Below, one piece after another: positions 4,286 to 12,244 of a stretch of DNA of 12,244 nt; position 1 is the first letter of the stretch, and each line of letters begins with the position of its first letter. The position numbers and the translations under genes are program-made. The notes beneath the pieces were generated by a model that was not told where the DNA came from, did not search any database, and worked only from the letters and a program-made list of their open reading frames with translations. Origin of the DNA: a virus. Lineage: Duplodnaviria; Heunggongvirae; Uroviricota; Caudoviricetes. Location: IMG/VR virus record IMGVR_UViG_3300027312_000135; one strand, given 5' to 3'.

Positions 4286-4909
4286 ATGAATAAAACTCTC
4301 GCAGAAAGATTGGCTAAGGCCATGCAAGAAAGGGATATGTCCCAGGGTGCTTTAGCTAAAGCATCGGGTGTAGCCCAACCAACTATCTGGCGCCTAGTCA
4401 AAGGTGAGGCCAAGGGTTCGACTCGTCTGGTTGATATTGCGCGCGCTCTGTCGGTGAGCGTTGAGTGGCTGGCTAACGGAACTGGGTCGATGGATGCTCA
4501 GGAAAAGATGACTTATCCTCAGCCACCAGCCAATGAGATGAAGCTCGGAGGGGTGTTTCCTGTTCCTGTCTTTGATCGCTCTAATGAACAAACACATGAC
4601 TATGTGTATGTCCCAAATTCAGTAGAGAGTGATAGCTGTAGAGCTTATATCTTAGAGCGAAATAGCGGGTGTTATGAAGCCCCTGCAGGAACTGTTGTCG
4701 TAGTAGACACAAAGGAAGAAGCTGGTAATGGTGATCTGGTTTACGCCAAAGTTAACGGGGCGTATTCCGTCTATAAATTTGTTGACGGCGGATCCACGGG
4801 TTATCTGTCAGTAGATGATGATCGCGTTCCTCTCGTACCTGCGACAACCGATTCATCCGTAATAGGCGTCGTCGTTTTCCTGCTGCGTGATCTGAAGCGC
4901 AAAAAGTAA
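4286..4909 (+). CDS. cI: cI-type prophage repressor: N-terminal HTH_XRE plus C-terminal S24/LexA-like domain
   Basis: MNKTLAERLAKAMQERDMSQGALAKASGVAQPTIWRLV.. is an XRE-type HTH. The C-terminal beta-rich domain (..GDLVYAKVNGAYSVYKF..) resembles an S24 peptidase fold. The ATG at 4286 was chosen because the ORF-track start at 4166 overlaps cro and OR. Confidence 0.85.
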   Translation: MNKTLAERLAKAMQERDMSQGALAKASGVAQPTIWRLVKGEAKGSTRLVDIARALSVSVEWLANGTGSMDAQEKMTYPQPPANEMKLGGVFPVPVFDRSNEQTHDYVYVPNSVESDSCRAYILERNSGCYEAPAGTVVVVDTKEEAGNGDLVYAKVNGAYSVYKFVDGGSTGYLSVDDDRVPLVPATTDSSVIGVVVFLLRDLKRKK

Positions 4910-5175
4910 TCCTCTTCATTTTTAGGGGGGGTGTATTCTGTATACCCTCCTTGCTTATTTCTAAGCAAAGCCGTCGCCATAATCCCTCCCCCTTTTCAAT
5001 CAAATCAGCATTTTATATTTTGAGTCCACCCAAAACACTGTTGTTTTAAACAGTAGTTTTCATAGTGAAACACATCCTCTTATAAATCAAGCAGAGCGTG
5101 ACGCTTTTTTTCTACCCTTCTCAAATCAGTAGCTTGCCACCATAAAACACTAATTTTTTTCGATACGAAATCATT

Positions 5176-5243
5176 CACTTATGCGTATTGCTATTGAAAT
5201 ATTACCAATACGTATTGCTATGAATAATACGCAATGCTATTGT
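5176..5243 (+). promoter_or_regulatory. OL operator cluster and PL promoter
   Basis: Three related sites lie at 5176-5193, 5203-5220 and 5222-5239. The middle one, TACCAATACGTATTGCTA, is an 18-bp palindrome with 8/9 pairs. The best promoter fit is TTGCTA (5215-5220), 17 nt, then TGcTATTGT (extended -10, 5235-5243). An alternative is TTGAAA (5194-5199), 19 nt, then TATGAA. Confidence 0.65.
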
Positions 5244-5285
5244 CTACCCCATCAGCAGGACGCAGTACCCAACAGGATGTTGGAT

Positions 5286-5332
5286 CGCTCTTTAACATTG
5301 ATGGGGTTTATTTCTCCCGCCCTTGTGGGAGA
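5286..5332 (+). promoter_or_regulatory. nutL: nutL: boxA plus boxB hairpin
   Basis: BoxA is CGCTCTTTAACA (5286-5297). BoxB is TCTCCCgcccttgtGGGAGA (5313-5332). It lies between PL and N. Confidence 0.75.
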
Positions 5333-5515
5333 CCAAAGAGCAGTTGGCTTTGGGATTGGATGAATGCGCAGGCATGGCTGGGATTAGCGAGTATTCCCGG
5401 CGTCGGCTGAAGCCGCTGGATAACAAACCCGCCTTGAGCGGTGGCAAAACCAGCGCGAGTGAACAGCGAGGAGCACCGGCCATCCAATCACCTAAGCCAA
5501 CTACCGGAGGTAAAT

Positions 5516-5785
5516 ATGTTTGCAGCTACCAACAGCGTCAGCCGTCGCTACCTCAAGCGTGGCGAACTGATCGCAAAACGCCGGGCAGAAGCGGCTGAAA
5601 GTAAAGCCCGCGTTGACGCCAGTGCTGAGCGCGTTTCGCGCGCTGTATCGGCGCCGAGCCTTCGTGAGAAACAAGACGTAGTAGCGCTACGCGTTAGTAC
5701 TAAATATCAGAAAATCAGCAACGAAGCTGGCCGTCAGATTCACGCTGTACAGAAGATCCGCGGAAAAAGCATTCCGCTTATCTAA
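5516..5785 (+). CDS. N: Antitermination protein N (phage 21-like arginine-rich motif)
   Basis: ATG at 5516 follows GGAGG. The N-terminus NSVSRRYLKRGELIAKRRAEAA resembles the phage 21 N ARM (SRYKARRAELIAERR). The C-terminal ..GKSIPLI resembles phage 21 ..GSKPLI. Confidence 0.85.
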   Translation: MFAATNSVSRRYLKRGELIAKRRAEAAESKARVDASAERVSRAVSAPSLREKQDVVALRVSTKYQKISNEAGRQIHAVQKIRGKSIPLI

Positions 5786-6050
5786 TGGCTTTCGATCCAG
5801 TCAGTACGCTGATGAACGAGATGAAGCTGATAGAGGTTATTAGCTTCTGCTCGCCTTCCACAGTTACAGCAGATAGCGCCATGAGGGGTATTTTTTTCTG
5901 CGTCTTTGAAGGTGAACTGAAATCAGCGTGCTCCACATTCAGGGCACCGAAACTTAACACGGCCCATGAGGAGACTCCGTTTTGGTTTTGCTTAGTGATA
6001 GGTAACCCTAACATTCCTTCCAGCTTTAGCCAGCAAAAAATGAACTTACT

Positions 6051-6071
6051 GCCGCATAAGCGGCTTTTTTT
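6051..6071 (+). terminator. Intrinsic terminator (tL1-like) downstream of N
   Basis: GCCGC-ataa-GCGGC stem-loop followed by T7 (6065-6071). Confidence 0.7.
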
Positions 6072-6095
6072 ACGCCCAAATTCAGGAGAGTAACG

Positions 6096-6368
6096 ATGTG
6101 CAATTGCATTGAAGAGGCTGGCCAGAAGGTCCGGGAGCAGATGCTCAAAAGCAAACCGGATGATGCCGAAATCGACGAAAGCTGGGGAGCCAGCGGCTGG
6201 GATAATCAGGTCATGTCGCTCGGCGATGGCAAAATTCGCGTGATGCTCAATTACAAAATGGGCTGGTATCCACGCAAGAAAGACGGCAGCCGCGCTAAGA
6301 ACGCAAGCCGCAAAGAAATGGCCGTGAAGATGAGTCACTGCCCTTTCTGTGGCGTCAGCCTTGAGTGA
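6096..6368 (+). CDS. Hypothetical 90-aa protein with split Cys pairs (CxC ... CPFC), possibly a zinc ribbon
   Basis: RBS AGGAG lies 6 nt upstream. The sequence runs MCNCIEEAGQKV...KMSHCPFCGVSLE. It occupies the ral/kil position of the PL operon. The antisense 197-aa ORF was judged a shadow. Confidence 0.65.
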   Translation: MCNCIEEAGQKVREQMLKSKPDDAEIDESWGASGWDNQVMSLGDGKIRVMLNYKMGWYPRKKDGSRAKNASRKEMAVKMSHCPFCGVSLE

Positions 6369-6459
6369 CACCGCAATGGCCTGTTACGGCAGGTCATGAC
6401 GGTGCATTTGCACCAGACGCGTAATGAGCCGCAGTGCGGTACGAGAGTTTTTCGCCTTT

Positions 6460-6491
6460 GGCTCCTGCAGGAATGCAGGGGCCATTTTTTT
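6460..6491 (+). terminator. Strong intrinsic terminator immediately upstream of cIII
   Basis: GGCTCCTGCA-ggaa-TGCAGGGGCC forms a 10-bp stem including one G-U pair, followed by A then T7 (6485-6491). Confidence 0.75.
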
Positions 6492-6522
6492 AACCAAACC
6501 AACCGAATTAAGGATGTCCACG

Positions 6523-6660
6523 ATGAATCTTGCGATCGCGGGCGGCACCATCGTGGATGCCGCTCAGCTTTACCCTTCCCAGTTAACCCGCTTAACAGAA
6601 CGCCTGCGCACCATTTGTCGCTGGCTGAAAGACACCCTGATGCAGCCAGGGAGACCCTAA
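6523..6660 (+). CDS. cIII: cIII (FtsH/HflB protease inhibitor)
   Basis: MNLAIAGGTIVDAAQLYPSQLTRLTERLRTICRWLKDTLMQPGRP aligns with lambda cIII MQYAIAGWPVAGCPSESLLERITRKLRDGWKRLIDILNQPGVP. RBS AAGGA lies 8 nt upstream. An in-frame ATG at 6514 is an alternative start. Confidence 0.85.
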   Translation: MNLAIAGGTIVDAAQLYPSQLTRLTERLRTICRWLKDTLMQPGRP

Positions 6661-6773
6661 TGAAAATTCGTTACTTCCAGAAAGCGCAGGAGCTTTCACG
6701 CGAGGCCCATCTGTTCGGCGACAGCGCGAAGTGGGCTATGGCAATGCTGTTGTTACGGAGAGCGCACCAGTGA
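6660..6773 (+). CDS. Possible 37-aa ORF coupled to cIII
   Basis: TAATG overlap with the cIII stop. The sequence is MKIRYFQKAQELSREAHLFGDSAKWAMAMLLLRRAHQ. There is no independent support. Confidence 0.35.
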   Translation: MKIRYFQKAQELSREAHLFGDSAKWAMAMLLLRRAHQ

Positions 6774-6811
6774 AACTTTCATGGCGAGCAAAACAGGAAG
6801 TCGAGGAGATT

Positions 6812-7081
6812 ATGAAAAATCTCTCTGAGACCGATTTAGAGCGCATCGGCGATGAAGCCGACTCGATGATGGACCAGCACAAGATTAACCCGCTGATGAC
6901 CGCGCTGTGCGCGTTCCTGCCTAAGCACTTCGATTACCCCGCTGTCGAGCTGGTCGACGAAGACGACGAGCAGTACGAAGCCGCCGAAAACTTCCTGCGC
7001 GATGCGCTGGTGAAAGTCGCTAAGCGGGACATGGCGATCGCCATCTGGAAAAGCCGAAACAGCTTCGATGAGGTGGCGTGA
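6812..7081 (+). CDS. Hypothetical acidic protein (89 aa; possibly 103-116 aa from upstream starts)
   Basis: ATG at 6812 follows GAGGAG. In-frame alternatives are GTG 6770 (GTGA-coupled to the 37-aa ORF, RBS GGAGAG) and ATG 6731. The stop overlaps the recE-like ATG (TGATG). Confidence 0.65.
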   Translation: MKNLSETDLERIGDEADSMMDQHKINPLMTALCAFLPKHFDYPAVELVDEDDEQYEAAENFLRDALVKVAKRDMAIAIWKSRNSFDEVA

Positions 7082-7899
7082 TGCAGCCTGGCATCTATTA
7101 CGACATCAGCAACGAGTCGTACCACAGCGGCCCCGGCATCAGTAAATCGCAGCTGGACGACATCGCGATCAACCCGGCCATCTTTCAGTGGCGCAAAGAA
7201 GCGCCAGAGGACGAAGAGAAGAAATCGGCACTGGATATGGGCACGGCCCTGCACTGCCTGCTGCTGGAGCCTGAAGAGTTTGATCACCGCTTCATCGTGG
7301 CGCCCGAGTTTAACCGCCGCACCAATGAAGGAAAGGCGAACGAGAAAGCCTTTCTGCAGGACTGCGCCGGGCTGGGCATGACGGTGATGGACGCCGAGGA
7401 AGGTCGCAAGCTGAAGCTTATGCAGGCCAGCGCCCTCGCCCACCCGGCCGCACGCTGGTTACTGGAGGCAGAAGGCCATCAGGAGGCGTCAATCTACTGG
7501 AATGATGAGCAGACAGGCGAACTTTGCCGGATCAGGTCAGACAAGTTTCTTTCGGAACAGCCCGTCATCGTTGACGTGAAAAAAGTGGCTGATATGTCCC
7601 GCTTCGCCCGGCACGTCGAAGAGTTCCGCTATCACGTTCAGGACGCCTATTACCGCGAGGGCTTCAGTCAGCATTTCGGCGAATACCCGCTTTTCGTTTT
7701 TATCGCCGTCAGCGAGTCGATCGACTGCGGCCGGTATCCGGTGCGCACCTTCCAGCTGCAGGAGGACGATGTTTCCGTGGGCTACGACCTCTTTCGCCGC
7801 GACCTGAACACCTATCACGAATGCATGCTGACCGGTAACTGGGGCGGCATCGAAGAAATCACGCGCCCGGACTGGGCAAAAAGGAAGGATTACGCATGA
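7081..7899 (+). CDS. recE: RecE-like / PD-(D/E)XK exonuclease (exodeoxyribonuclease VIII C-terminal-domain type)
   Basis: Nuclease motifs are visible: ..RIRSDKF.., IVDVKKV (D/E-x-K) and HVQDAYY (QxxxY). It lies immediately upstream of, and overlaps, recT. Confidence 0.8.
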   Translation: MQPGIYYDISNESYHSGPGISKSQLDDIAINPAIFQWRKEAPEDEEKKSALDMGTALHCLLLEPEEFDHRFIVAPEFNRRTNEGKANEKAFLQDCAGLGMTVMDAEEGRKLKLMQASALAHPAARWLLEAEGHQEASIYWNDEQTGELCRIRSDKFLSEQPVIVDVKKVADMSRFARHVEEFRYHVQDAYYREGFSQHFGEYPLFVFIAVSESIDCGRYPVRTFQLQEDDVSVGYDLFRRDLNTYHECMLTGNWGGIEEITRPDWAKRKDYA

Positions 7900-8798
7900 G
7901 CAACGAAATTACGCACCCGCCGGTCAACGAGGCCGACACCAAAGCGGCAATTTTCAGCCCGAGCGCATTGCAGAAGCTGCAGGCGTTTGCCGAAGTGATG
8001 GCAATGGGAAAAGTCACAGTTCCCGCCCACCTGGCTGGTAAACCCGCCGATTGTCTCGCTGTCGCGCTTCAGGCTGCACAGTGGGGCATGAACCCCTACG
8101 CAGTGGCGCAGAAAACACATGCCGTTAACGGCACGCTGGGCTACGAAGCGCAACTGGTAAACGCCGTCATAACCAGCTCTACGGCCGTGCAGGGTCGCTT
8201 CAAATATGAGTACGGCGGCGACTGGGAGAAGTTCAAGCCCGGCGCAGCTAACGCGGCGAATGAACGCGGCCTGTTTGTCCGGGTCGGCGCCGTGCTGCGC
8301 GGCGAGACGGAAATCACCTGGGGCGAGCCGCTGTTTCTGGAGTTCGTAACCACCCGCAACTCTCCGCTCTGGAAAACAGCGCCGAAGCAGCAGCTGGCTT
8401 ATCTGGCCGTCAAATACTGGGCGCGCCTCTACTGCCCTGACGTCATCCTCGGCGTTTACACCCCAGATGAGTTTGAACCGGCGCAGCGCGCGGAACGTGA
8501 TGTTACCCCAGCACGCAGCCGTGCAGACCTGAACAACCTGATCAACAGCAAGCCCGAAACGCAGCAGCCCGAGCGCGAAATTAACCCGGCGACTAACACC
8601 AGTGCACCAGCGCGCACGCCGGACGAGCTCCTTGCCGATTTCACCACCGCTGCAGCTGAAGCGGAAAACGTTGCCGGTCTGGACCGCTGCTACAAATACG
8701 CGGCACGCATGCTGGCTAATGATGGTCAAGATCTTGTAAAGGCGACGAAGGTTTATCAGATACGCAAGAAAGAACTTAGCGATTCAGATTTAGGATAA
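7896..8798 (+). CDS. recT: RecT-family single-strand annealing protein
   Basis: The 300-aa ORF has an ATGA overlap with the exonuclease gene. The core (..QAAQWGMNPYAVAQKTHAVNGTLGYEAQL.. , ..NSPLWKT.PKQQLAYLAVKYWARLY..) is typical of RecT. Confidence 0.88.
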   Translation: MSNEITHPPVNEADTKAAIFSPSALQKLQAFAEVMAMGKVTVPAHLAGKPADCLAVALQAAQWGMNPYAVAQKTHAVNGTLGYEAQLVNAVITSSTAVQGRFKYEYGGDWEKFKPGAANAANERGLFVRVGAVLRGETEITWGEPLFLEFVTTRNSPLWKTAPKQQLAYLAVKYWARLYCPDVILGVYTPDEFEPAQRAERDVTPARSRADLNNLINSKPETQQPEREINPATNTSAPARTPDELLADFTTAAAEAENVAGLDRCYKYAARMLANDGQDLVKATKVYQIRKKELSDSDLG

Positions 8799-8830
8799 AC
8801 ATGTAGTACACTTATAGCTCTATAAAATTC

Positions 8831-8861
8831 AAAAAATATTTCCCCTCAGCCGAGGGGAAAT
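8831..8861 (-). terminator. Intrinsic terminator ending the minus-strand island operon; may act weakly for recT on the plus strand
   Basis: ATTTCCCCTC-agcc-GAGGGGAAAT forms a 10-bp stem (8838-8861). On the minus strand it is followed directly by ATTTTTT (8837-8831). Confidence 0.8.
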
Positions 8862-8863
8862 GA

Positions 8864-9004
8864 TTAAGGTTTTTTTGGCGGTGGGGCTGGTTGCGTAACT
8901 TGTTTAGCTGGTTTATAACCCTCGTTTACTGGCTGTGATTTCGGTTGATAACCATAGTCATATGGTTGATATCCATCTTCTTTGAACCTTTTTTCATTGG
9001 CCAT
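8864..9004 (-). CDS. Proline-rich micro-protein paralog 3 (46 aa; 50 aa if started at 9016)
   Basis: Hand-translated: MANEKRFKEDGYQPYDYGYQPKSQPVNEGYKPAKQVTQPAPPPKKP*. It shares its C-terminal motif with the two upstream micro-ORFs. The RBS is weak. Confidence 0.55.
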   Translation of the reverse strand: MANEKRFKEDGYQPYDYGYQPKSQPVNEGYKPAKQVTQPAPPPKKP

Positions 9005-9033
9005 TTTTACACTCATCTTCAATTACTTAAATA

Positions 9034-9177
9034 TTATGGTTTTTTAGGGGGAGGTACGGGCTGTGTTACTTGTTTTGAAGGTTTGTAACCCTTTTCGACA
9101 GGCTTCTCTTTTGGCTGATACCCACGATCGGTATTATCACCGTTAAATTTAGAATACTTCTGGTTAAATAATTTCAT
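9034..9177 (-). CDS. Proline-rich micro-protein paralog 2 (47 aa)
   Basis: Hand-translated: MKLFNQKYSKFNGDNTDRGYQPKEKPVEKGYKPSKQVTQPVPPPKKP*. A GAGGTAGGA RBS region precedes the ATG. Confidence 0.6.
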   Translation of the reverse strand: MKLFNQKYSKFNGDNTDRGYQPKEKPVEKGYKPSKQVTQPVPPPKKP

Positions 9178-9191
9178 ACCGTTTCCTACCT

Positions 9192-9335
9192 CTATGGCTT
9201 TTTTGGAGGAGGTGCAGGAGGGGTAACCTGTTTCGGAGGTATATAACCACCATTAACACCATTGCTACTCTGGTTTTTACTTTGAGCTCTAGGTTGATAA
9301 CCATCTTGAGCTATGCCTTTATTTTTTTGCATCAT
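9192..9335 (-). CDS. Proline-rich micro-protein paralog 1 (47 aa; 46 aa from the second ATG)
   Basis: Hand-translated: MMQKNKGIAQDGYQPRAQSKNQSSNGVNGGYIPPKQVTPPAPPPKKP*. RBS is GGAGA. It starts 20 nt after the stop of the 195-aa membrane protein. Confidence 0.6.
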   Translation of the reverse strand: MMQKNKGIAQDGYQPRAQSKNQSSNGVNGGYIPPKQVTPPAPPPKKP

Positions 9336-9355
9336 ACATTCTCCAATGGAAATAA

Positions 9356-9943
9356 CTACGTTTCATAAAATTCAATCTTTTCAATATCTTTAGAGAGAAT
9401 AAGCACGCCCTGAGTCTTATCTTTGACGCTATCAAAACCACCGTCGCTATTAATGTGCCAACTTTGCTCTAAATAGAGTTGCTCTGGTTCAGGAGCGCTG
9501 GAAGCAAAAGAGTCACTACCATAATACCCGCCTATAGTCTTTCCGTCTTTTAAAGTAACAACGACCCAAGCCGTTTTACGCAATCCAAAATAATAATCCC
9601 AAGATCTTCCTGTTGGGTGTGGTAATAAGTTCTTTATCCATGGCAAAACTCTGGCCTTAGAGAAAATAAGCGCCAATAGAATAGGGCTTATTATCAAAAC
9701 AATCATATAAAAACAAAAGTAAATGAACGGGTGAGAAAACTTAAAGCCCAGCCCTTCAAAATAATATATTGGAATAAACCAAATCGCGTGATTGATGCAA
9801 CTGTAAGATACAACTTCTACTATCGCTTTTGAAGTATCTATTTGTACTGTAGGATGAAAAACATTATATGCTTTCATGCTTAGAAAGCCAGGAACGACAA
9901 AAAGGATAAAAATAAATAACTTACTACTATTCCAGATATCCAT
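9356..9943 (-). CDS. Integral membrane protein (three predicted TM helices plus a C-terminal soluble domain), function unknown
   Basis: 195-aa ORF in AT-rich DNA. Hydrophobic segments are KLFIFILFVVPGFLSMKAY, AIVEVVSYSCINHAIWFIPIYYF and PFIYFCFYMIVLIISPILLALIF. These are followed by RSWDYYFGLRKTAWVVVTLKDGKTIGGYYG...LYLEQSW. The layout is reminiscent of small DUF-type membrane proteins of prophages (recollection, not verified). Confidence 0.8.
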   Translation of the reverse strand: MDIWNSSKLFIFILFVVPGFLSMKAYNVFHPTVQIDTSKAIVEVVSYSCINHAIWFIPIYYFEGLGFKFSHPFIYFCFYMIVLIISPILLALIFSKARVLPWIKNLLPHPTGRSWDYYFGLRKTAWVVVTLKDGKTIGGYYGSDSFASSAPEPEQLYLEQSWHINSDGGFDSVKDKTQGVLILSKDIEKIEFYET

Positions 9944-10120
9944 TAGAGTTTTCTTCGAGTGATTTTTCTTTAAAAGAGCAAAACTGCACCTTCATGTCAA
10001 TAATTTTTTAGATGATTTTAAAGTATTACTAGTTTTCTTGATGAACAACACATAGCAGAGAAATACATGATGATAAGGTATACGTGGGCATGCCCCAACG
10101 ATGTCAATTCCAAGGAGCTT

Positions 10121-10246
10121 ATGAACATGCCGGTAATAGTTACGAAGTGGAGATGCAGCAGCCGGAAGCGGCTAAAGTTTTACCGTGATGGGTCGATGCA
10201 GTTACCGGAGGGTTACGATCCGATTTATCAGAAAGAGGGGGATTGA
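10121..10246 (+). CDS. Small basic peptide (41 aa; 59 aa if started at ATG 10067, 39 aa from ATG 10127)
   Basis: AAGGAG at 10112-10117. The sequence is MNMPVIVTKWRCSSRKRLKFYRDGSMQLPEGYDPIYQKEGD*. The stop TGA shares its A with the ATG of the 220-aa gene (TGATG). Confidence 0.45.
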   Translation: MNMPVIVTKWRCSSRKRLKFYRDGSMQLPEGYDPIYQKEGD

Positions 10247-10905
10247 TGTTCGAGCTATTTGATAAGAGATATTCCCATAGGATATCAGAAGCTCTTAAAG
10301 AGAAAGTTCGCACTGACATAGATGGGCCAGGATTCATTGCTCGGGGGATTCTTGAGGCTATTCGCTTACTAGAAGGTGAAAACGTAGCGCAGTCCACAAG
10401 AGCGATGCGACATAAGGAGCGAGAACTAAAAGGGGAACTAGAAGGTTTTTTTCATATTCACGTTGCAGAAGACAATTTTAGTAGATTAATGAATAATTTT
10501 GGTGGGAAGCCCTCTAAACCAATAAAAAACCCCAGACCAGATGAATTGATTGCTTATGCCACAAATCAAGTCTTAAAAGCATATGTTAAAAAATTTAGCA
10601 TCCCTTATAGTAGTGATGACACTCAACATTTGAGGGATGCCATAATTAACAGCAGCCATGCGAAGAAGATTGGCGCTGATAATATTTTTGATTCAATTCA
10701 GAAGCAAATACCTATGATGATAGACAAGGTATTTTTTTCAAACAATAAAGTTAGTGGCGATTGGTTATTATATAAAAAACACAGCGATGGTAAAAACTAT
10801 TACCTTGATTTCACAGTACATGTAGAATCAGAAGATACGCAGCGCCAAATTGAACTTCGAGCGTCTTTGAATAAATCTTTCCAAGAACTTATCAAACAAC
10901 ATTAA
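10246..10905 (+). CDS. Hypothetical 219-aa protein of the AT-rich island
   Basis: ATG at 10246 follows GAGGGGG; the ORF-track start at 10243 is a TTG one codon upstream. AT-rich codon usage matches the island. A strong terminator follows. I recognise no family with confidence. Confidence 0.78.
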   Translation: MFELFDKRYSHRISEALKEKVRTDIDGPGFIARGILEAIRLLEGENVAQSTRAMRHKERELKGELEGFFHIHVAEDNFSRLMNNFGGKPSKPIKNPRPDELIAYATNQVLKAYVKKFSIPYSSDDTQHLRDAIINSSHAKKIGADNIFDSIQKQIPMMIDKVFFSNNKVSGDWLLYKKHSDGKNYYLDFTVHVESEDTQRQIELRASLNKSFQELIKQH

Positions 10906-10920
10906 TTCTTAATAACTTTG

Positions 10921-10942
10921 ACCTGCTCCGGCAGGTTTTTTT
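10921..10942 (+). terminator. Intrinsic terminator closing the island
   Basis: ACCTGC-tccg-GCAGGT stem followed by a T-run to 10942. Confidence 0.85.
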
Positions 10943-10959
10943 ACGCCTAAATTTCGGAA

Positions 10960-11178
10960 ATGACTATGAATTTTCCAGATCCAGCAGACGAAGCAGCAGA
11001 ACGCGAACAGCAGCTGATAGAGGTAGCGCTGGCGAACAGGCCGGTTCCGCTGATGACTTACACAGGTAAATGTCACTACTGCGAAGAGCCAATCGACAAG
11101 GGGCATTTCTGCAGCGATGAATGTCGAACCGATCATGAGCGTATTCAGCATGCTCTTCGCAACAAAAAGGTGGCATGA
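10960..11178 (+). CDS. DksA/TraR-like small zinc-finger protein
   Basis: The 72-aa ORF reads ..EREQQLIEVALANR...GKCHYCEEPIDKGHFCSDECRTDHE. This is a CxxC...FCSxxC arrangement like phage TraR-type proteins. The start could be ATG 10966. Confidence 0.6.
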   Translation: MTMNFPDPADEAAEREQQLIEVALANRPVPLMTYTGKCHYCEEPIDKGHFCSDECRTDHERIQHALRNKKVA

Positions 11179-11390
11179 CGCCGCAAACTGAAAACGCACT
11201 AAGGGCCGTAGCGCGTAAGTGCAGGAGCGAGATTCTTAAAGCCATTGATGGCACAGAACACGACCGCATCATAACCATCCTTCTCGATAAGCACGCCAAA
11301 ACCGTTCAATGCCTACCGCCAGGCACATTCCCGGCAAAACGCTGGCTGTCCTTCTATGTGCGGCAGGTAGATAAGGAAATTCGCCAGTGA
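11175..11390 (+). CDS. Hypothetical protein (71 aa)
   Basis: ATGA overlap with the upstream gene and GTGA overlap with the downstream methyltransferase. GC content resembles the backbone. Confidence 0.6.
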   Translation: MTPQTENALRAVARKCRSEILKAIDGTEHDRIITILLDKHAKTVQCLPPGTFPAKRWLSFYVRQVDKEIRQ

Positions 11391-11959
11391 ATATCGTTAA
11401 TGACTATGGCGACAGCACCACACCGCCCGAACACCGTGACAGCTGGCAGACGTCGCCGGAAATATTTGCTGCGCTGAACCGCAATTTCCGCTTTGTGGCT
11501 GATGTTGCGGCGAGCGAGCATAACCACCTGCTCCCGGTTTACTTCACCGAAAAGGACGACGCGCTGGCGCAGGACTGGGCCGGACAACTGCCACTGGGGA
11601 TCACCTGGTGCAATCCGACCTATAGCGACATTTCTCCCTGGGTGAAGAAAGCCGCGGAGGAATGCCGTAAAGGGATCGGCATCGTGATGCTTGTTCCCGC
11701 TGACACTTCGGTCGGCTGGTTCAGCCTGGCGCGGAACTCATGCACCGAGGTGCGCTTCATTATCGACGGTCGACTCTCGTTTATTCGCGCTGATACAGGC
11801 AAGCCGGTCAACGGCAACAATAAGGGATCGATGCTGTTGATCTGGAACCCGTTCACCTCAGATTTTGGCATAACCGGGCATGTCTCGCGTGACACGCTAA
11901 TGGCGATCGGACGGAAGCTATTGTCCGAACGGGAGCCTGCCGACGAGCGCGCCGCATGA
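11387..11959 (+). CDS. dam: Phage Dam-type DNA N6-adenine methyltransferase
   Basis: WQTSPEIFAALNRNFRFVADVAASEHN...YFT..DDAL..DW....WCNPTYSDISPWVKKA matches the phage N6A-MTase family layout. The catalytic tetrad reads NPTY rather than N/DPPY. The start is a GTG. Confidence 0.85.
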   Translation: MNIVNDYGDSTTPPEHRDSWQTSPEIFAALNRNFRFVADVAASEHNHLLPVYFTEKDDALAQDWAGQLPLGITWCNPTYSDISPWVKKAAEECRKGIGIVMLVPADTSVGWFSLARNSCTEVRFIIDGRLSFIRADTGKPVNGNNKGSMLLIWNPFTSDFGITGHVSRDTLMAIGRKLLSEREPADERAA

Positions 11960-12058
11960 CAGCCACCATAAAGAAGCCGACATGGGCTGGATTATCACTA
12001 ATCTGGCCCTTTTTATTTGTATCGTGCTGGCCTGGCTATGGCCGCCAAAGGAGTAGAT

Positions 12059-12244
12059 ATGGAACGAATGTATAGCTGCCGACAGGTTTGTGAAATTCTG
12101 AGCATCGGTAAAACCACTCTATATCGAAAGGTAAAAAGTGGTGAAATTGATAAGCCTCTGCGTAACGGTTGCCGGATGAGCCGTTGGCCGGAATCAAGCA
12201 TCACACGTTATCAGGAATCACTGAAACGAAGTCATGCGGCATAA
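12059..12244 (+). CDS. xis: AlpA/Xis-type excisionase or DNA-binding regulator
   Basis: ATG at 12059 follows AAGGAG. MERMYSCRQVCEILSIGKTTLYRKVKSGEIDKPLRNG.RMSRWPESSI is a typical AlpA-family HTH. The stop is at the window end, and an integrase is expected beyond. Confidence 0.78.
   Translation: MERMYSCRQVCEILSIGKTTLYRKVKSGEIDKPLRNGCRMSRWPESSITRYQESLKRSHAA

Follow-up and report, generated by a model that had tools for sequence, protein, structure and literature searches.

A DUF6338 Membrane Protein and Proline-Tailed Microproteins Form an Uncharacterised Two-Part Module in the Cargo Hotspot after recT in a Lambdoid Pantoea Prophage

Overview

The stretch that follows recT in a lambdoid Pantoea prophage is a real cargo hotspot. 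In the 12,244-nucleotide sequence analysed here (the window) it holds a module of two parts, as yet uncharacterised: a DUF6338 membrane protein together with three proline-tailed microproteins. On balance, and by a small measure, we favour the view that the hotspot holds two unrelated things: an antisense DUF6338-microprotein module (8799 to about 10066), whose microprotein would dock on and regulate the membrane protein, speculatively as an addiction or phage-exclusion device, and a theta remnant with the orphan gene D (10067-10950) belonging to the early operon. Since the module is linked in the same way in many bacterial phyla and one archaeal MAG, it is worth testing. If the prediction holds, several hundred microproteins that lack annotation, each about 50 aa long, would be given a family definition and a partner, a Pfam domain of unknown function would be placed in a defined two-gene context, and a candidate new accessory system would be added to the prophages, plasmids and defence islands of many phyla. 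The case would also show that the conserved half of a system can lie in micro-ORFs, which are often passed over by annotation pipelines. In this prophage, the true cargo is set apart from what is left of a decayed backbone gene and from a rare orphan.

Features of the region, in positions of the window:
7896-8798, plus strand: recT, conserved left anchor of the hotspot (Pfam RecT, E 3.7e-30)
8828-8861, minus strand: intrinsic terminator of the antisense DUF6338 operon (10-bp stem 8838-8861, U-tract 8828-8837)
8864-9016, minus strand: microprotein B3, 50 aa from ATG 9016 (MSVKMANEKRFKEDGYQPYDYGYQPKSQPVNEGYKPAKQVTQPAPPPKKP); a TTG start at 9022 gives 52 aa
9034-9177, minus strand: microprotein B2, 47 aa (...DRGYQPKEKPVEKGYKPSKQVTQPVPPPKKP), AGGAAA Shine-Dalgarno upstream
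9192-9335, minus strand: microprotein B1, 47 aa (MMQKNKGIAQDGYQPRAQSKNQSSNGVNGGYIPPKQVTPPAPPPKKP), GGAGAA Shine-Dalgarno upstream
9356-9943, minus strand: DUF6338 membrane protein, 195 aa, predicted three TM helices and C-terminal cytoplasmic Sm-like beta-barrel (residues ~125-194)
9944-10066, no strand assigned: AT-rich upstream region of the DUF6338 operon (GC 0.285), candidate promoter region with TTGACA on the minus strand
10067-10246, plus strand: decayed DNA polymerase III theta (HOT-like) gene (ORF 10067/10121-10246; phrog_1105, E 3.4e-5, C-terminal 30 residues only)
10246-10905, plus strand: orphan protein D, 219 aa from ATG 10246 (ORF 10243/10246-10905), a rare accessory gene after theta in relatives
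10920-10944, plus strand: intrinsic terminator after D (7-bp stem 10920-10937, then a U-run)
10960-11178, plus strand: DksA/TraR-like zinc-finger gene, conserved right anchor (phrog_54, E 7e-11)

The Cargo Hotspot Downstream of recT

The initial annotation described 8799-10950 as a single insulated island of two divergent, self-promoted orphan operons, both holding lysogenic-conversion or anti-phage cargo. Its account of layout and composition was borne out: all six ORFs are present as it listed them, GC content falls abruptly after recT from about 0.56 to 0.29-0.37, and the terminators at the two ends both fold well (left, -15.9 kcal/mol, z -3.6, 0 of 200 shuffles equally good; right, -11.7 kcal/mol, z -3.8). 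The region is compositionally foreign to its flanks, with a GC content of 0.371 over 8799-9943 and 0.367 in the 220-aa ORF, against 0.559 (5400-8798) and 0.53 (10951-12244) in the backbone; 10067-10246 is the sole exception inside the AT-rich region, at 0.483. A repeat search turned up no direct or inverted repeats at the bounds of the island, which therefore bears no trace of having transposed or been inserted site-specifically. Neither Rfam nor tRNA scanning of the window gave a match, and megablast with 7000-12244 as the query found nothing in complete E. coli genomes or in GenBank phages. The 90% cluster of the recT product has 184 members, those named being Pantoea.

The window was compared with 80 viral contigs whose exo and recT are 76-94% identical. 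DUF6338 was found in none of these relatives and the 220-aa protein D in one, so that the island is not core, while theta occurs in 34 and the zinc-finger gene in 37 of them. In the related phages the interval from recT to the zinc-finger gene or phrog_303 is between 315 and 4078 nt long and as a rule AT-rich, with a median GC of 0.475 versus 0.56 upstream. The comparison with the related phage L099 shows where the exchange took place. The two sequences have exo and recT in common (82% identity over 7018-8704) and again, collinearly, the theta-D-zinc-finger stretch (73% identity over 10111-11124), and L099 carries different cargo between recT and theta, so that only ~8705-10110 is replaced. 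Of the stretch between recT and the zinc-finger gene, the left part is swapped and the theta-D part is shared. What was swapped in is confined to ~8799-10066, runs antisense to the early-left (exo-recT...xis) operon of the phage and has its own terminator.

We consider the single-island reading unlikely. It accounts for the low GC over the whole of 8799-10950 and the terminators at both ends, and D is also rare (1 of 80 relatives) and AT-rich (0.367). D was also found at another site, the nin region, in a Serratia prophage, which makes D accessory too. Against it, L099 keeps the right half in place while the left half is replaced, in every relative the start of D overlaps the theta stop, D is read the same way as the early operon, a search for a rightward promoter came up empty, and the supposed small peptide is a pseudogene remnant.

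The region has two marks of a prophage moron, distinct GC (0.29-0.37 versus 0.56) and presence or absence among relatives. As for transcription of its own, it has strong terminators and, on the promoter side, a conserved -35 hexamer without a -10. Like known morons and hotspots of lambdoid prophages, its cassette is an AT-rich, terminator-bounded antisense unit amid conserved early genes, present or absent among close relatives; it differs in that its cargo is absent from PADLOC, PHROGs and NCBIfam and that only the left half of the region is swapped.

The Theta Remnant and the Orphan Gene D

The rightward "small peptide" had been taken for an orphan gene. Set against the intact theta of L099, at both the DNA and the protein level, it is instead a DNA polymerase III theta/HOT-like gene that has lost its N-terminus, carries a 1-nt frameshift and internal deletions, and keeps the 3' end that overlaps the start of D. 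The match to phrog_1105 covers only profile positions 50-79 of 79, and the match to the theta family (PF06440) reaches 16.2 bits, below the cut-off of 34.6. Thus 10067-10246 resembles theta (HolE) and phage P1 Hot in its ~30 C-terminal residues, and its DNA resembles the intact theta genes found immediately upstream of D in relatives, but it is frameshifted, internally deleted, N-truncated and below the Pfam threshold, a remnant and not a functional member.

D is on record in its ATG-start 219-aa form; the exact TTG-start 220-aa form was not matched. Homologs are very rare, 8 among 5.8e9 proteins, with 15 profile matches among 1.8e9 representatives, and no family was found in Pfam, PHROG, NCBIfam or PADLOC. 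The start of D overlaps the theta stop codon in relatives, and D points the same way as the early-left operon, so it does not need its own promoter. What had been called a rightward orphan operon is therefore the theta remnant and D in sense orientation, common to the early operon of related phages: 10067-10950 is a decayed theta/HOT gene plus a rare orphan, part of that operon.

Two divergent promoters had also been proposed. The TTGACA on the minus strand is present at 10000-9995 and is kept in the closest relative, L100, but no canonical -10 follows it at a spacing of 15-19 nt. For the rightward genes no convincing sigma-70 promoter was found, and the best site in a consensus promoter scan of 9900-10300 had at most 8 of 12 matches. 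The DUF6338 upstream regions of nine enterobacterial loci do not align, so that there is no common regulatory element beyond the window and L100. A hairpin or attenuator in the conserved sequence after the TTGACA was considered and rejected, the stem not being kept in the window.

The DUF6338 Protein and Its Microproteins

None of the six products had been assigned to a family, which was too strong. The membrane protein is a full-length member of Pfam DUF6338 (PF19865; E 1e-34, 120.1 bits against a gathering threshold of 26.5), its residues 5-194 of 195 aligning to profile positions 4-201 of 205, and the three micro-ORFs belong to a large, conserved and unnamed family. The DUF6338 protein is predicted to be an inner-membrane protein with three TM helices, its N-terminus outside and an Sm-like barrel in the cytoplasm. 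With PADLOC-DB v2, PHROG and NCBIfam models the module had no match. Across all six products these collections gave only the weak theta match, with PADLOC itself at 0 matches at E <= 1, so that no known defence family was matched.

B1, B2 and B3 are paralogs of 47-50 aa that follow the DUF6338 gene closely: B1 starts 20 nt past the DUF6338 stop, and the gaps before B2 and B3 are 14 and 17 nt. They are soluble, disordered and rich in Pro, Lys, Tyr and Gln, with two to three GYxP repeats each (GYQP and GYIP in B1, GYQP and GYKP in B2, GYQP twice and GYKP in B3), and all three end ...PPPKKP, the last PP being followed by KKP and the stop. We defined the family as soluble peptides of 45-85 aa with at least two G[YWHF]xP motifs and a last PP followed by exactly three residues, with a start no more than ~60 nt past a DUF6338 gene in the same orientation; B1-B3 have all the features of this GYxP-repeat/PPxxx-COOH family. 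Exactly three residues follow the last PP in 84 of 88 family peptides. A search with the peptide profile returned 342 proteins, 49-80 aa long among the best 120 of the 342, and among the profile matches listed none has a Pfam domain and any name given is "hypothetical".

B3 is 80% identical to its L100 ortholog, with synonymous sites saturated. Between the window and L100 the microproteins have a pN of 0.158 versus a pS of 0.849, and over the C-terminal 13 codons the values are 0.057 versus 0.88. By this codon comparison, the microproteins are under purifying selection as proteins.

The sole published trace of the module is in P. stutzeri, where mass spectrometry picked up, at 98-100% coverage, three small Pro-rich proteins whose genes are predicted to share an operon with DUF6338; these SEP1/SEP5/SEP2 peptides were termed species-specific and possibly new genes, and no link to the membrane protein was proposed (PMC10433244). 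The likeness lies in small proteins seen by mass spectrometry beside DUF6338; the P. stutzeri peptides have a PPPPKK-type tail and no GYxP motif. Our analysis differs in the pairing at 79 of 79 evaluable loci, the GYxP and PPxxx-COOH signature and the covariation described below. Literature searches on PF19865, GYQP, Sm-like defence systems and polyproline/EF-P prophage small proteins gave nothing relevant beyond that study.

Linkage and Spread of the Module

A microprotein directly follows the DUF6338 gene in all 79 evaluable loci, which span many bacterial phyla and one archaeal MAG; at one of them the peptide is IS-disrupted. When the peptide rule was applied to 7391 small ORFs (703 kb, six frames), 76 matched, and each of the 76 sits immediately downstream of, and on the same strand as, a DUF6338 gene. 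In P0116 the two proteins are naturally fused. The gene pair is thus obligatorily linked across this range. More distant plasmid DUF6338 genes that were examined, from Gordonia and Mesorhizobium, have no obvious GYxP peptide.

The module is also mobile as a unit. DUF6338 homologs of 57-81% identity, each with one to three ...PPPKKP peptides, occur at other prophage sites, among them the nin region (Enterobacter and Klebsiella prophages), next to int-xis-SNF2 (E. coli) and next to recT/yqaJ (L100). The module is likewise found in a phage-plasmid and in 20 plasmid records. No third partner gene is conserved, the commonest neighbouring Pfam family occurring at 3 of 73 loci. Flanking genes often gave strong defence or mobile-element matches, as raw, uncorrected observations, including GajA (3e-273), type IIG restriction-modification, IetS, AbiEii, ThsB-TIR, OLD-TOPRIM, nSTAND3, SMODS, HipA, defence-type reverse transcriptases and integrases. 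In Enterobacter a KAP NTPase follows the module, and in E. coli PCTIR-TIR and SIR2 genes lie close to it; some other flanking genes are ordinary metabolism genes.

Covariation of the Microprotein Tail and the Sm-Like Domain

Charges at the end of the microprotein and in the barrel change together. Tail position -2 and column 171 (D167) carry opposite charges in 56 of 73 pairs and the same charge in one, and tail position -1 and column 132 (V128) carry opposite charges in 26 pairs and the same charge in none. At least 5-6 independent co-switches were counted at tail -2/column 171, as assessed on a UPGMA tree rather than a formal phylogenetic model; in one example, at 81% identity, L053 has PPGKE with D and L056 has PPGDE with K. 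Since the charges of the last two tail residues change together with those at two sites in the Sm-like domain, direct docking is predicted, and the contacts between the penultimate residue and D167 and between the last residue and V128 would become testable.

The C-terminus of the microprotein may therefore dock on the cytoplasmic Sm-like domain much as a PxxPx(K/R) ligand does on an SH3-type small barrel, and so regulate the membrane protein. The analogy with SH3-type barrels and with Sm/LSm proteins that bind peptide motifs has its limits: the barrel here is anchored in the membrane by three TM helices, and the ligand is a separate gene product that would be read from its free C-terminus, as predicted from sequence alone.

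Possible Functions of the Module

Our best guess at the function is a membrane effector regulated by its docked microprotein, of the addiction or phage-exclusion type. Speculatively, and by analogy only, the Sm-like domains could assemble the DUF6338 protein into a ring- or pore-type effector, abundant and labile microproteins could hold it inactive, and their polyproline codons could tie microprotein supply to translational health. On prophages, plasmids and defence islands such a module might serve for addiction, in the manner of a toxin-antitoxin pair, or for phage exclusion by abortive infection. The interaction of two genes that marks toxin-antitoxin and abortive-infection modules is suggested here by operon structure and charge covariation. 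As in type II toxin-antitoxin and abortive-infection systems with a membrane effector, two tightly linked co-oriented genes are found on prophages, plasmids and defence islands, a small, disordered and probably labile partner appears to bind the larger protein, and no third gene is conserved. However, neither protein is homologous to a known toxin or antitoxin, and the partner has no DNA-binding domain and comes in one to three tandem copies.

More tentatively, and with a probability well short of even, the pair could be a new kind of two-component system in which an Sm-like ring anchored in the membrane would recognise a dedicated polyproline microprotein by its free C-terminus. Synthesis of the microprotein would be EF-P-dependent, and the system would so couple translational status, or phage-induced translational shut-off, to a membrane response. 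If true, this would be a mechanism without characterised precedent among toxin-antitoxin, defence and small-protein regulators.

It is possible, though we doubt it, that the pair is a general membrane-physiology module riding mobile elements, for instance a small channel or scaffold, an Sm-like ring capped by a disordered adaptor. The layout of three TM helices and an Sm-like domain recalls the core of MscS, a resemblance that we take to be one of architecture only, and sequence searches linked the protein neither to MscS nor to any solved structure (no Pfam MS_channel match, and no PDB sequence match with the family profile at E <= 10). DUF6338 proteins keep ~40-60% identity from Enterobacterales to Chloroflexi and the archaeal MAG; conservation this high is atypical of fast-evolving defence genes, so a housekeeping-type interaction also fits. 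Some neighbours are housekeeping genes, and the P. stutzeri peptides were constitutively abundant under two growth conditions (PMC10433244). The patchy, mobile-element-borne distribution (prophage moron sites, small plasmids, defence-gene neighbours) and the absence of the module from the 80 close relatives of the phage speak against such a role.

An antimicrobial role for the P. stutzeri peptides was raised by the authors of that study (PMC10433244). On the model of insect and mammalian proline-rich antimicrobial peptides, the microproteins would be the effectors, acting on a conserved target such as the ribosome exit tunnel, release factors or DnaK, and DUF6338 the exporter or immunity protein. 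They are Pro-rich, Tyr-containing and mostly cationic with a strictly positioned C-terminus, and three gene copies would suit an effector. But they have no signal peptide and no PRP motifs, about a quarter of the family has acidic tails and a net negative charge, three TM helices are few for an exporter, and the covariation marks the Sm-like domain as the binding partner. We regard this as quite improbable.

Least probable of all, with only a slight chance of being right, are micro-ORFs that act as cis-acting translational pause elements, where an EF-P-dependent stall at the near-terminal PP would tune termination or read-through at the adjoining terminator. The position of PP exactly three codons before the stop in those 84 of 88 peptides would fit, as would its PPP, PPG and APP contexts, which are strong EF-P-dependent stall motifs, and the terminator at 8828-8861 begins 3 nt past the B3 stop codon. 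Conservation at the protein level, however, extends far from the tail into the GYxP repeats, tail charge co-varies with DUF6338, and there are a natural fusion protein and full-length peptides seen by mass spectrometry. A ribosome-arrest leader peptide of the SecM or ApdA type was also considered and rejected, the microprotein genes being downstream of DUF6338 and the last before the terminator. Ribosome pausing could still be a secondary feature of the micro-ORFs.

Prophage Setting and Composition of the Island

The window represents the early region of a lambdoid prophage. The replication proteins P and O, a ParB-HTH protein, CII and a Cro/YdaS-like protein are encoded on the minus strand and a CI-type repressor (HTH plus S24 peptidase) on the plus strand; the leftward early operon comes next and contains the AT-rich island.

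7078-7899, plus strand: PDDEXK exonuclease, early-left operon
7896-8798, plus strand: RecT, early-left operon, before the island
8864-9016, minus strand: microprotein B3, ...DGYQPYDYGYQPKSQPVNEGYKPAKQVTQPAPPPKKP
9034-9177, minus strand: microprotein B2, ...RGYQPKEKPVEKGYKPSKQVTQPVPPPKKP
9192-9335, minus strand: microprotein B1, ...DGYQP...GGYIPPKQVTPPAPPPKKP
9356-9943, minus strand: 195-aa DUF6338 membrane protein
10067-10246, plus strand: remnant of a theta gene
10246-10905, plus strand: 219-aa protein D
10960-11178, plus strand: DksA-like zinc-finger gene, early-left operon, after the island
Downstream of the zinc-finger gene, plus strand: phrog_303 gene, Dam, excisionase-like gene

The host is a Pantoea, since all named members of the 90%-identity clusters of RecT and Dam are Pantoea or Caudoviricetes MAGs. 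Over stretches of 2.6-4.5 kb, three contigs from metagenomes match the window at 100% identity. A terminator-like hairpin with a 14-bp stem (4923-4953) lies 3' of the CI repressor gene; between it and the first early-left gene, around 500 nt of low GC (0.36-0.43, within 4909-5440) without an ORF of convincing length presumably form the oL/pL control region.

The abrupt GC drop, the bracketing terminators and the six ORFs of the initial annotation were all recovered. The GC content is 0.371 over 8799-9943, 0.285 over 9944-10066 and 0.367 in the ORF of D (annotated as 220 aa), against 0.559 and 0.53 in the backbone. Each terminator is a real hairpin followed by a U-run (8838-8861 on the minus strand, -15.9 kcal/mol; 10920-10937 on the plus strand, -11.7 kcal/mol), with z around -3.6 to -3.8 and none of 200 shuffles folding as well in either case. 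The minus-strand TTGACA at 10000-9995 is present and is kept in the closest relative, but no acceptable -10 element lies downstream of it, and a search for a rightward promoter found none. At 8826-8880 the antisense terminator hairpin is flanked by an upstream A-run and, 8 nt downstream, a plus-strand T-run; read on the plus strand, the region adopts an extended fold of -19.2 kcal/mol, and this terminator might also attenuate early-left read-through from recT.

A Cargo Hotspot and a Composite Island

The reading of the region as a cargo site was examined in 80 viral contigs whose exo and recT are 76-94% identical to their counterparts in the window, and it holds for the region as a hotspot: DUF6338 is found in none of the 80 and D in a single one, and the interval from recT to the next conserved gene lies between 315 nt, where there is no cargo, and 4078 nt. 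Theta is present in 34 of these contigs, the zinc finger in 37 and phrog_303 in 34. The median GC of the interval is 0.475 versus 0.56 upstream, and in 30 of 40 intervals GC falls below 42% in some 400-nt window. The region after recT is a cargo hotspot, hypervariable and AT-rich. An antisense gene for a 193-aa multi-TM protein of no Pfam family stands right after recT in two related contigs (L099:5328-5909 and L128:7013-7591, 87% identical); the site is repeatedly host to antisense membrane-protein cargo.

The proposal of two divergent orphan operons was wrong in detail. Contig L099 is 82% identical to the window across exo and recT (window 7018-8704) and 73% identical over 10111-11124, which comprises the theta fragment, the 219-aa gene, the terminator and the zinc-finger gene. 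Because L099 matches on both sides and carries different cargo between them (the antisense gene of the 193-aa multi-TM protein and one resembling PAPS reductase), only the left part, about 8705-10110, has been exchanged, the block of theta fragment and D being common to both. In all relatives with D in the early-left region (L096-L099), theta (DNA pol III, HOT-like) directly precedes D and its stop codon overlaps the D ATG. The segment 10067-10246, previously described as a small-peptide gene of a rightward operon, aligns at the DNA level to this theta gene, but it has lost the N-terminus and carries deletions and a 1-nt frameshift; its match to theta models is limited to the last 30 or so residues and scores below the Pfam threshold. 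It is a decayed theta gene, the 3' end of which was probably kept owing to the overlap with D. D itself reads in the direction of the early operon, and no promoter could be recognised for it alone. Its extreme rarity shows in 8 homologs out of 5.8 billion proteins and in the 15 hits that a profile gave in 1.8 billion representatives; we obtained neither a family nor a confident model or fold match for it.

The DUF6338-Microprotein Module and Its Mobility

The valuable content of the region is the DUF6338-microprotein pair. None of the products had been considered assignable, but the 195-aa protein belongs to Pfam DUF6338, which it matches over its full length (120 bits). The three micro-ORFs, spaced by 14-20 nt, are paralogs of one another, B1 and B2 having Shine-Dalgarno sequences. 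Homologs of the DUF6338 protein (57-81% identity) occur on unassigned metagenomic contigs and in Enterobacter, Klebsiella and E. coli prophages, at differing sites: in the nin region adjoining dinI/rusA/Q, beside int-xis-SNF2, or beside recT/yqaJ. In every such prophage locus, one to three micro-ORFs come after DUF6338, with tails of the PPP[KR]KP type, in most cases PPPKKP. The Klebsiella phage-plasmid pJN2-26 and Acinetobacter plasmids show the same arrangement, and the module is also carried on 10-16 kb plasmids. DUF6338 and its micro-ORFs move together as one unit.

A pattern scan with one genome per species gave 80 DUF6338 loci, from Gamma-, Beta- and Alphaproteobacteria, Desulfobacterota, Campylobacterota, Nitrospirota, Chloroflexota, Bacteroidales, Synergistaceae, Planctomycetota, Sumerlaeota and one Methanosarcinales MAG. 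When a peptide was required to have two or more G[YWHF]xP motifs and, within the last 12 residues, two or more prolines, 76 of 7391 small ORFs (six frames, 703 kb) satisfied the rule, and all 76 lay immediately downstream of DUF6338 on the same strand. The loci outside the rule have variant peptides, one IS-interrupted copy, or a contig end, so that with the interrupted copy counted a microprotein gene follows DUF6338 in 79/79 evaluable loci. That copy (L043:5579-5760, an uncultured betaproteobacterium MAG), the only evaluable locus without an intact peptide, starts MPDKKRQ... and is broken after about 10 codons by an element whose reading frame, judged by eye, resembles an IS21-type transposase. 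Distant DUF6338 genes (24-31% identity) without a GYxP peptide occur on a Mesorhizobium plasmid (L108:1079-3082), directly after a nucleotidyltransferase and SLATT-domain pair, and on a Gordonia plasmid (L107), after a type I restriction endonuclease and with a Pro/Gly-rich C-terminal extension.

Predicted Docking of the Microprotein Tail

The positive-inside rule, read from the sequence, places the Sm-like barrel of the DUF6338 protein in the cytoplasm; the peptides have no signal sequence and would therefore be on the same side. Among 73 DUF6338-peptide pairs, the penultimate peptide residue and column 171 (D167 of the window protein, within an N-x-D-G-G-F loop) are of opposite charge in 56 and of the same charge in one. 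For the last residue and column 132 (V128, first barrel strand), 26 pairs are of opposite charge and none of the same, E occurring with K, and P with I or V. By parsimony on a tree from the rest of the protein, 6 of 13 tail changes fall on the same nodes as column-171 changes. Loci L053 (PPGKE with D) and L056 (PPGDE with K) have co-switched at 81% identity, and independent switches are also seen in L040, L046, L086/L090/L093 and the archaeal L092. Where the tails are basic, the cytoplasmic domain carries a net charge of -4.2; where they are acidic, it carries +0.7. Because the tail charges co-vary with columns 171 and 132, we predict that the free C-terminus of the microprotein docks on the Sm-like domain, a formal likeness to an SH3-type barrel with its PxxPx(K/R) ligand. 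The pair is a two-gene system of wide distribution that has gone all but undescribed, and the interaction predicted for it is concrete and testable.

The Microproteins as a Protein Family

The 88 unique peptides have a median length of 54 aa and consist of 18.5% Pro, 12% Lys and 10% Gly, hydrophobic residues being almost absent. Typically there are three GYQP-type motifs, the last starting 18-22 residues before the C-terminus; common tails are PPKKP, PPKKK, PPGDE and PPGKE. A family profile matched 342 proteins, and the best 120 of them are 49-80 aa long, lack a Pfam domain and, where named, are "hypothetical protein". The window and its closest relative, L100, have 81% identical DUF6338 proteins and three orthologous peptides, whose genes give a pN of 0.16 for a pS of 0.85 (saturated); over the C-terminal 13 codons pN is 0.057. 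One database protein (P0116, 259 aa, on a 2380-nt Logan metagenome contig) joins DUF6338 to a GYQP...GGYQP...PPPKKP tail, which could be a true fusion or else reflect stop-codon loss or sequencing error.

In our literature search, a single paper mentioned DUF6338 (PMC10433244). It reports a P. stutzeri DUF6338 gene in a predicted operon with three proline-rich small proteins (CP036186.1:2666728-2667116; Table S5), which digest-free mass spectrometry detected at 44-114 PSMs each and a coverage of 98-100%, and which the authors took to be species-specific. Their tails (...APPPPKK, ...APPPPPKRDSK and ...PPPPPKKGG) share the polyproline-Lys character of the GYxP family, but they lack GYxP and have 2-5 residues after the last PP, versus exactly three in 84 of the 88 family peptides. 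They form a divergent branch of the DUF6338 partner family. A rival reading makes the micro-ORFs cis-acting pause elements; we conclude that their products are real proteins.

Neighbourhood and Possible Function

No conserved third gene accompanies the module, at most 3 of 73 neighbours sharing a family. Flanking genes often give strong defence or mobile-element matches (GajA, type IIG restriction-modification, IetS, AbiEii, ThsB-TIR, OLD-TOPRIM, nSTAND3, SMODS, HipA, defence-type reverse transcriptases and integrases). The lack of a third gene, these neighbours, the occurrence on plasmids and the antisense, terminator-bounded cargo placement together point to a self-sufficient accessory system.

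In the mechanism that we prefer, which is speculative, DUF6338 would be a small membrane effector that may form oligomers by way of the Sm-like domain, and abundant, labile microproteins would hold it in check; polyproline codons could tie the supply of this antidote to translation capacity. The module might then act as a toxin-antitoxin-like addiction or phage-exclusion device. In a rival reading the peptides would be the effectors. PADLOC found no match of the module to known defence models, and the conservation of DUF6338 is unusually high for a defence gene, which counts against a defence role; a general membrane-physiology module is another rival reading.

In Enterobacter prophages (L004-L009, 7144-9268), a gene for a 707-aa KAP-family P-loop NTPase follows the module of DUF6338 and two peptides on the same strand, beyond the module's terminator; it could be linked to the module in function or be a second piece of cargo. 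In E. coli prophages (L190-L194), the DUF6338 homologs lie between int-xis-SNF2 and small genes, with a CAP12/PCTIR-type TIR gene close by and, in L194, a SIR2_2 gene too; this region is possibly a multi-defence cargo cluster.
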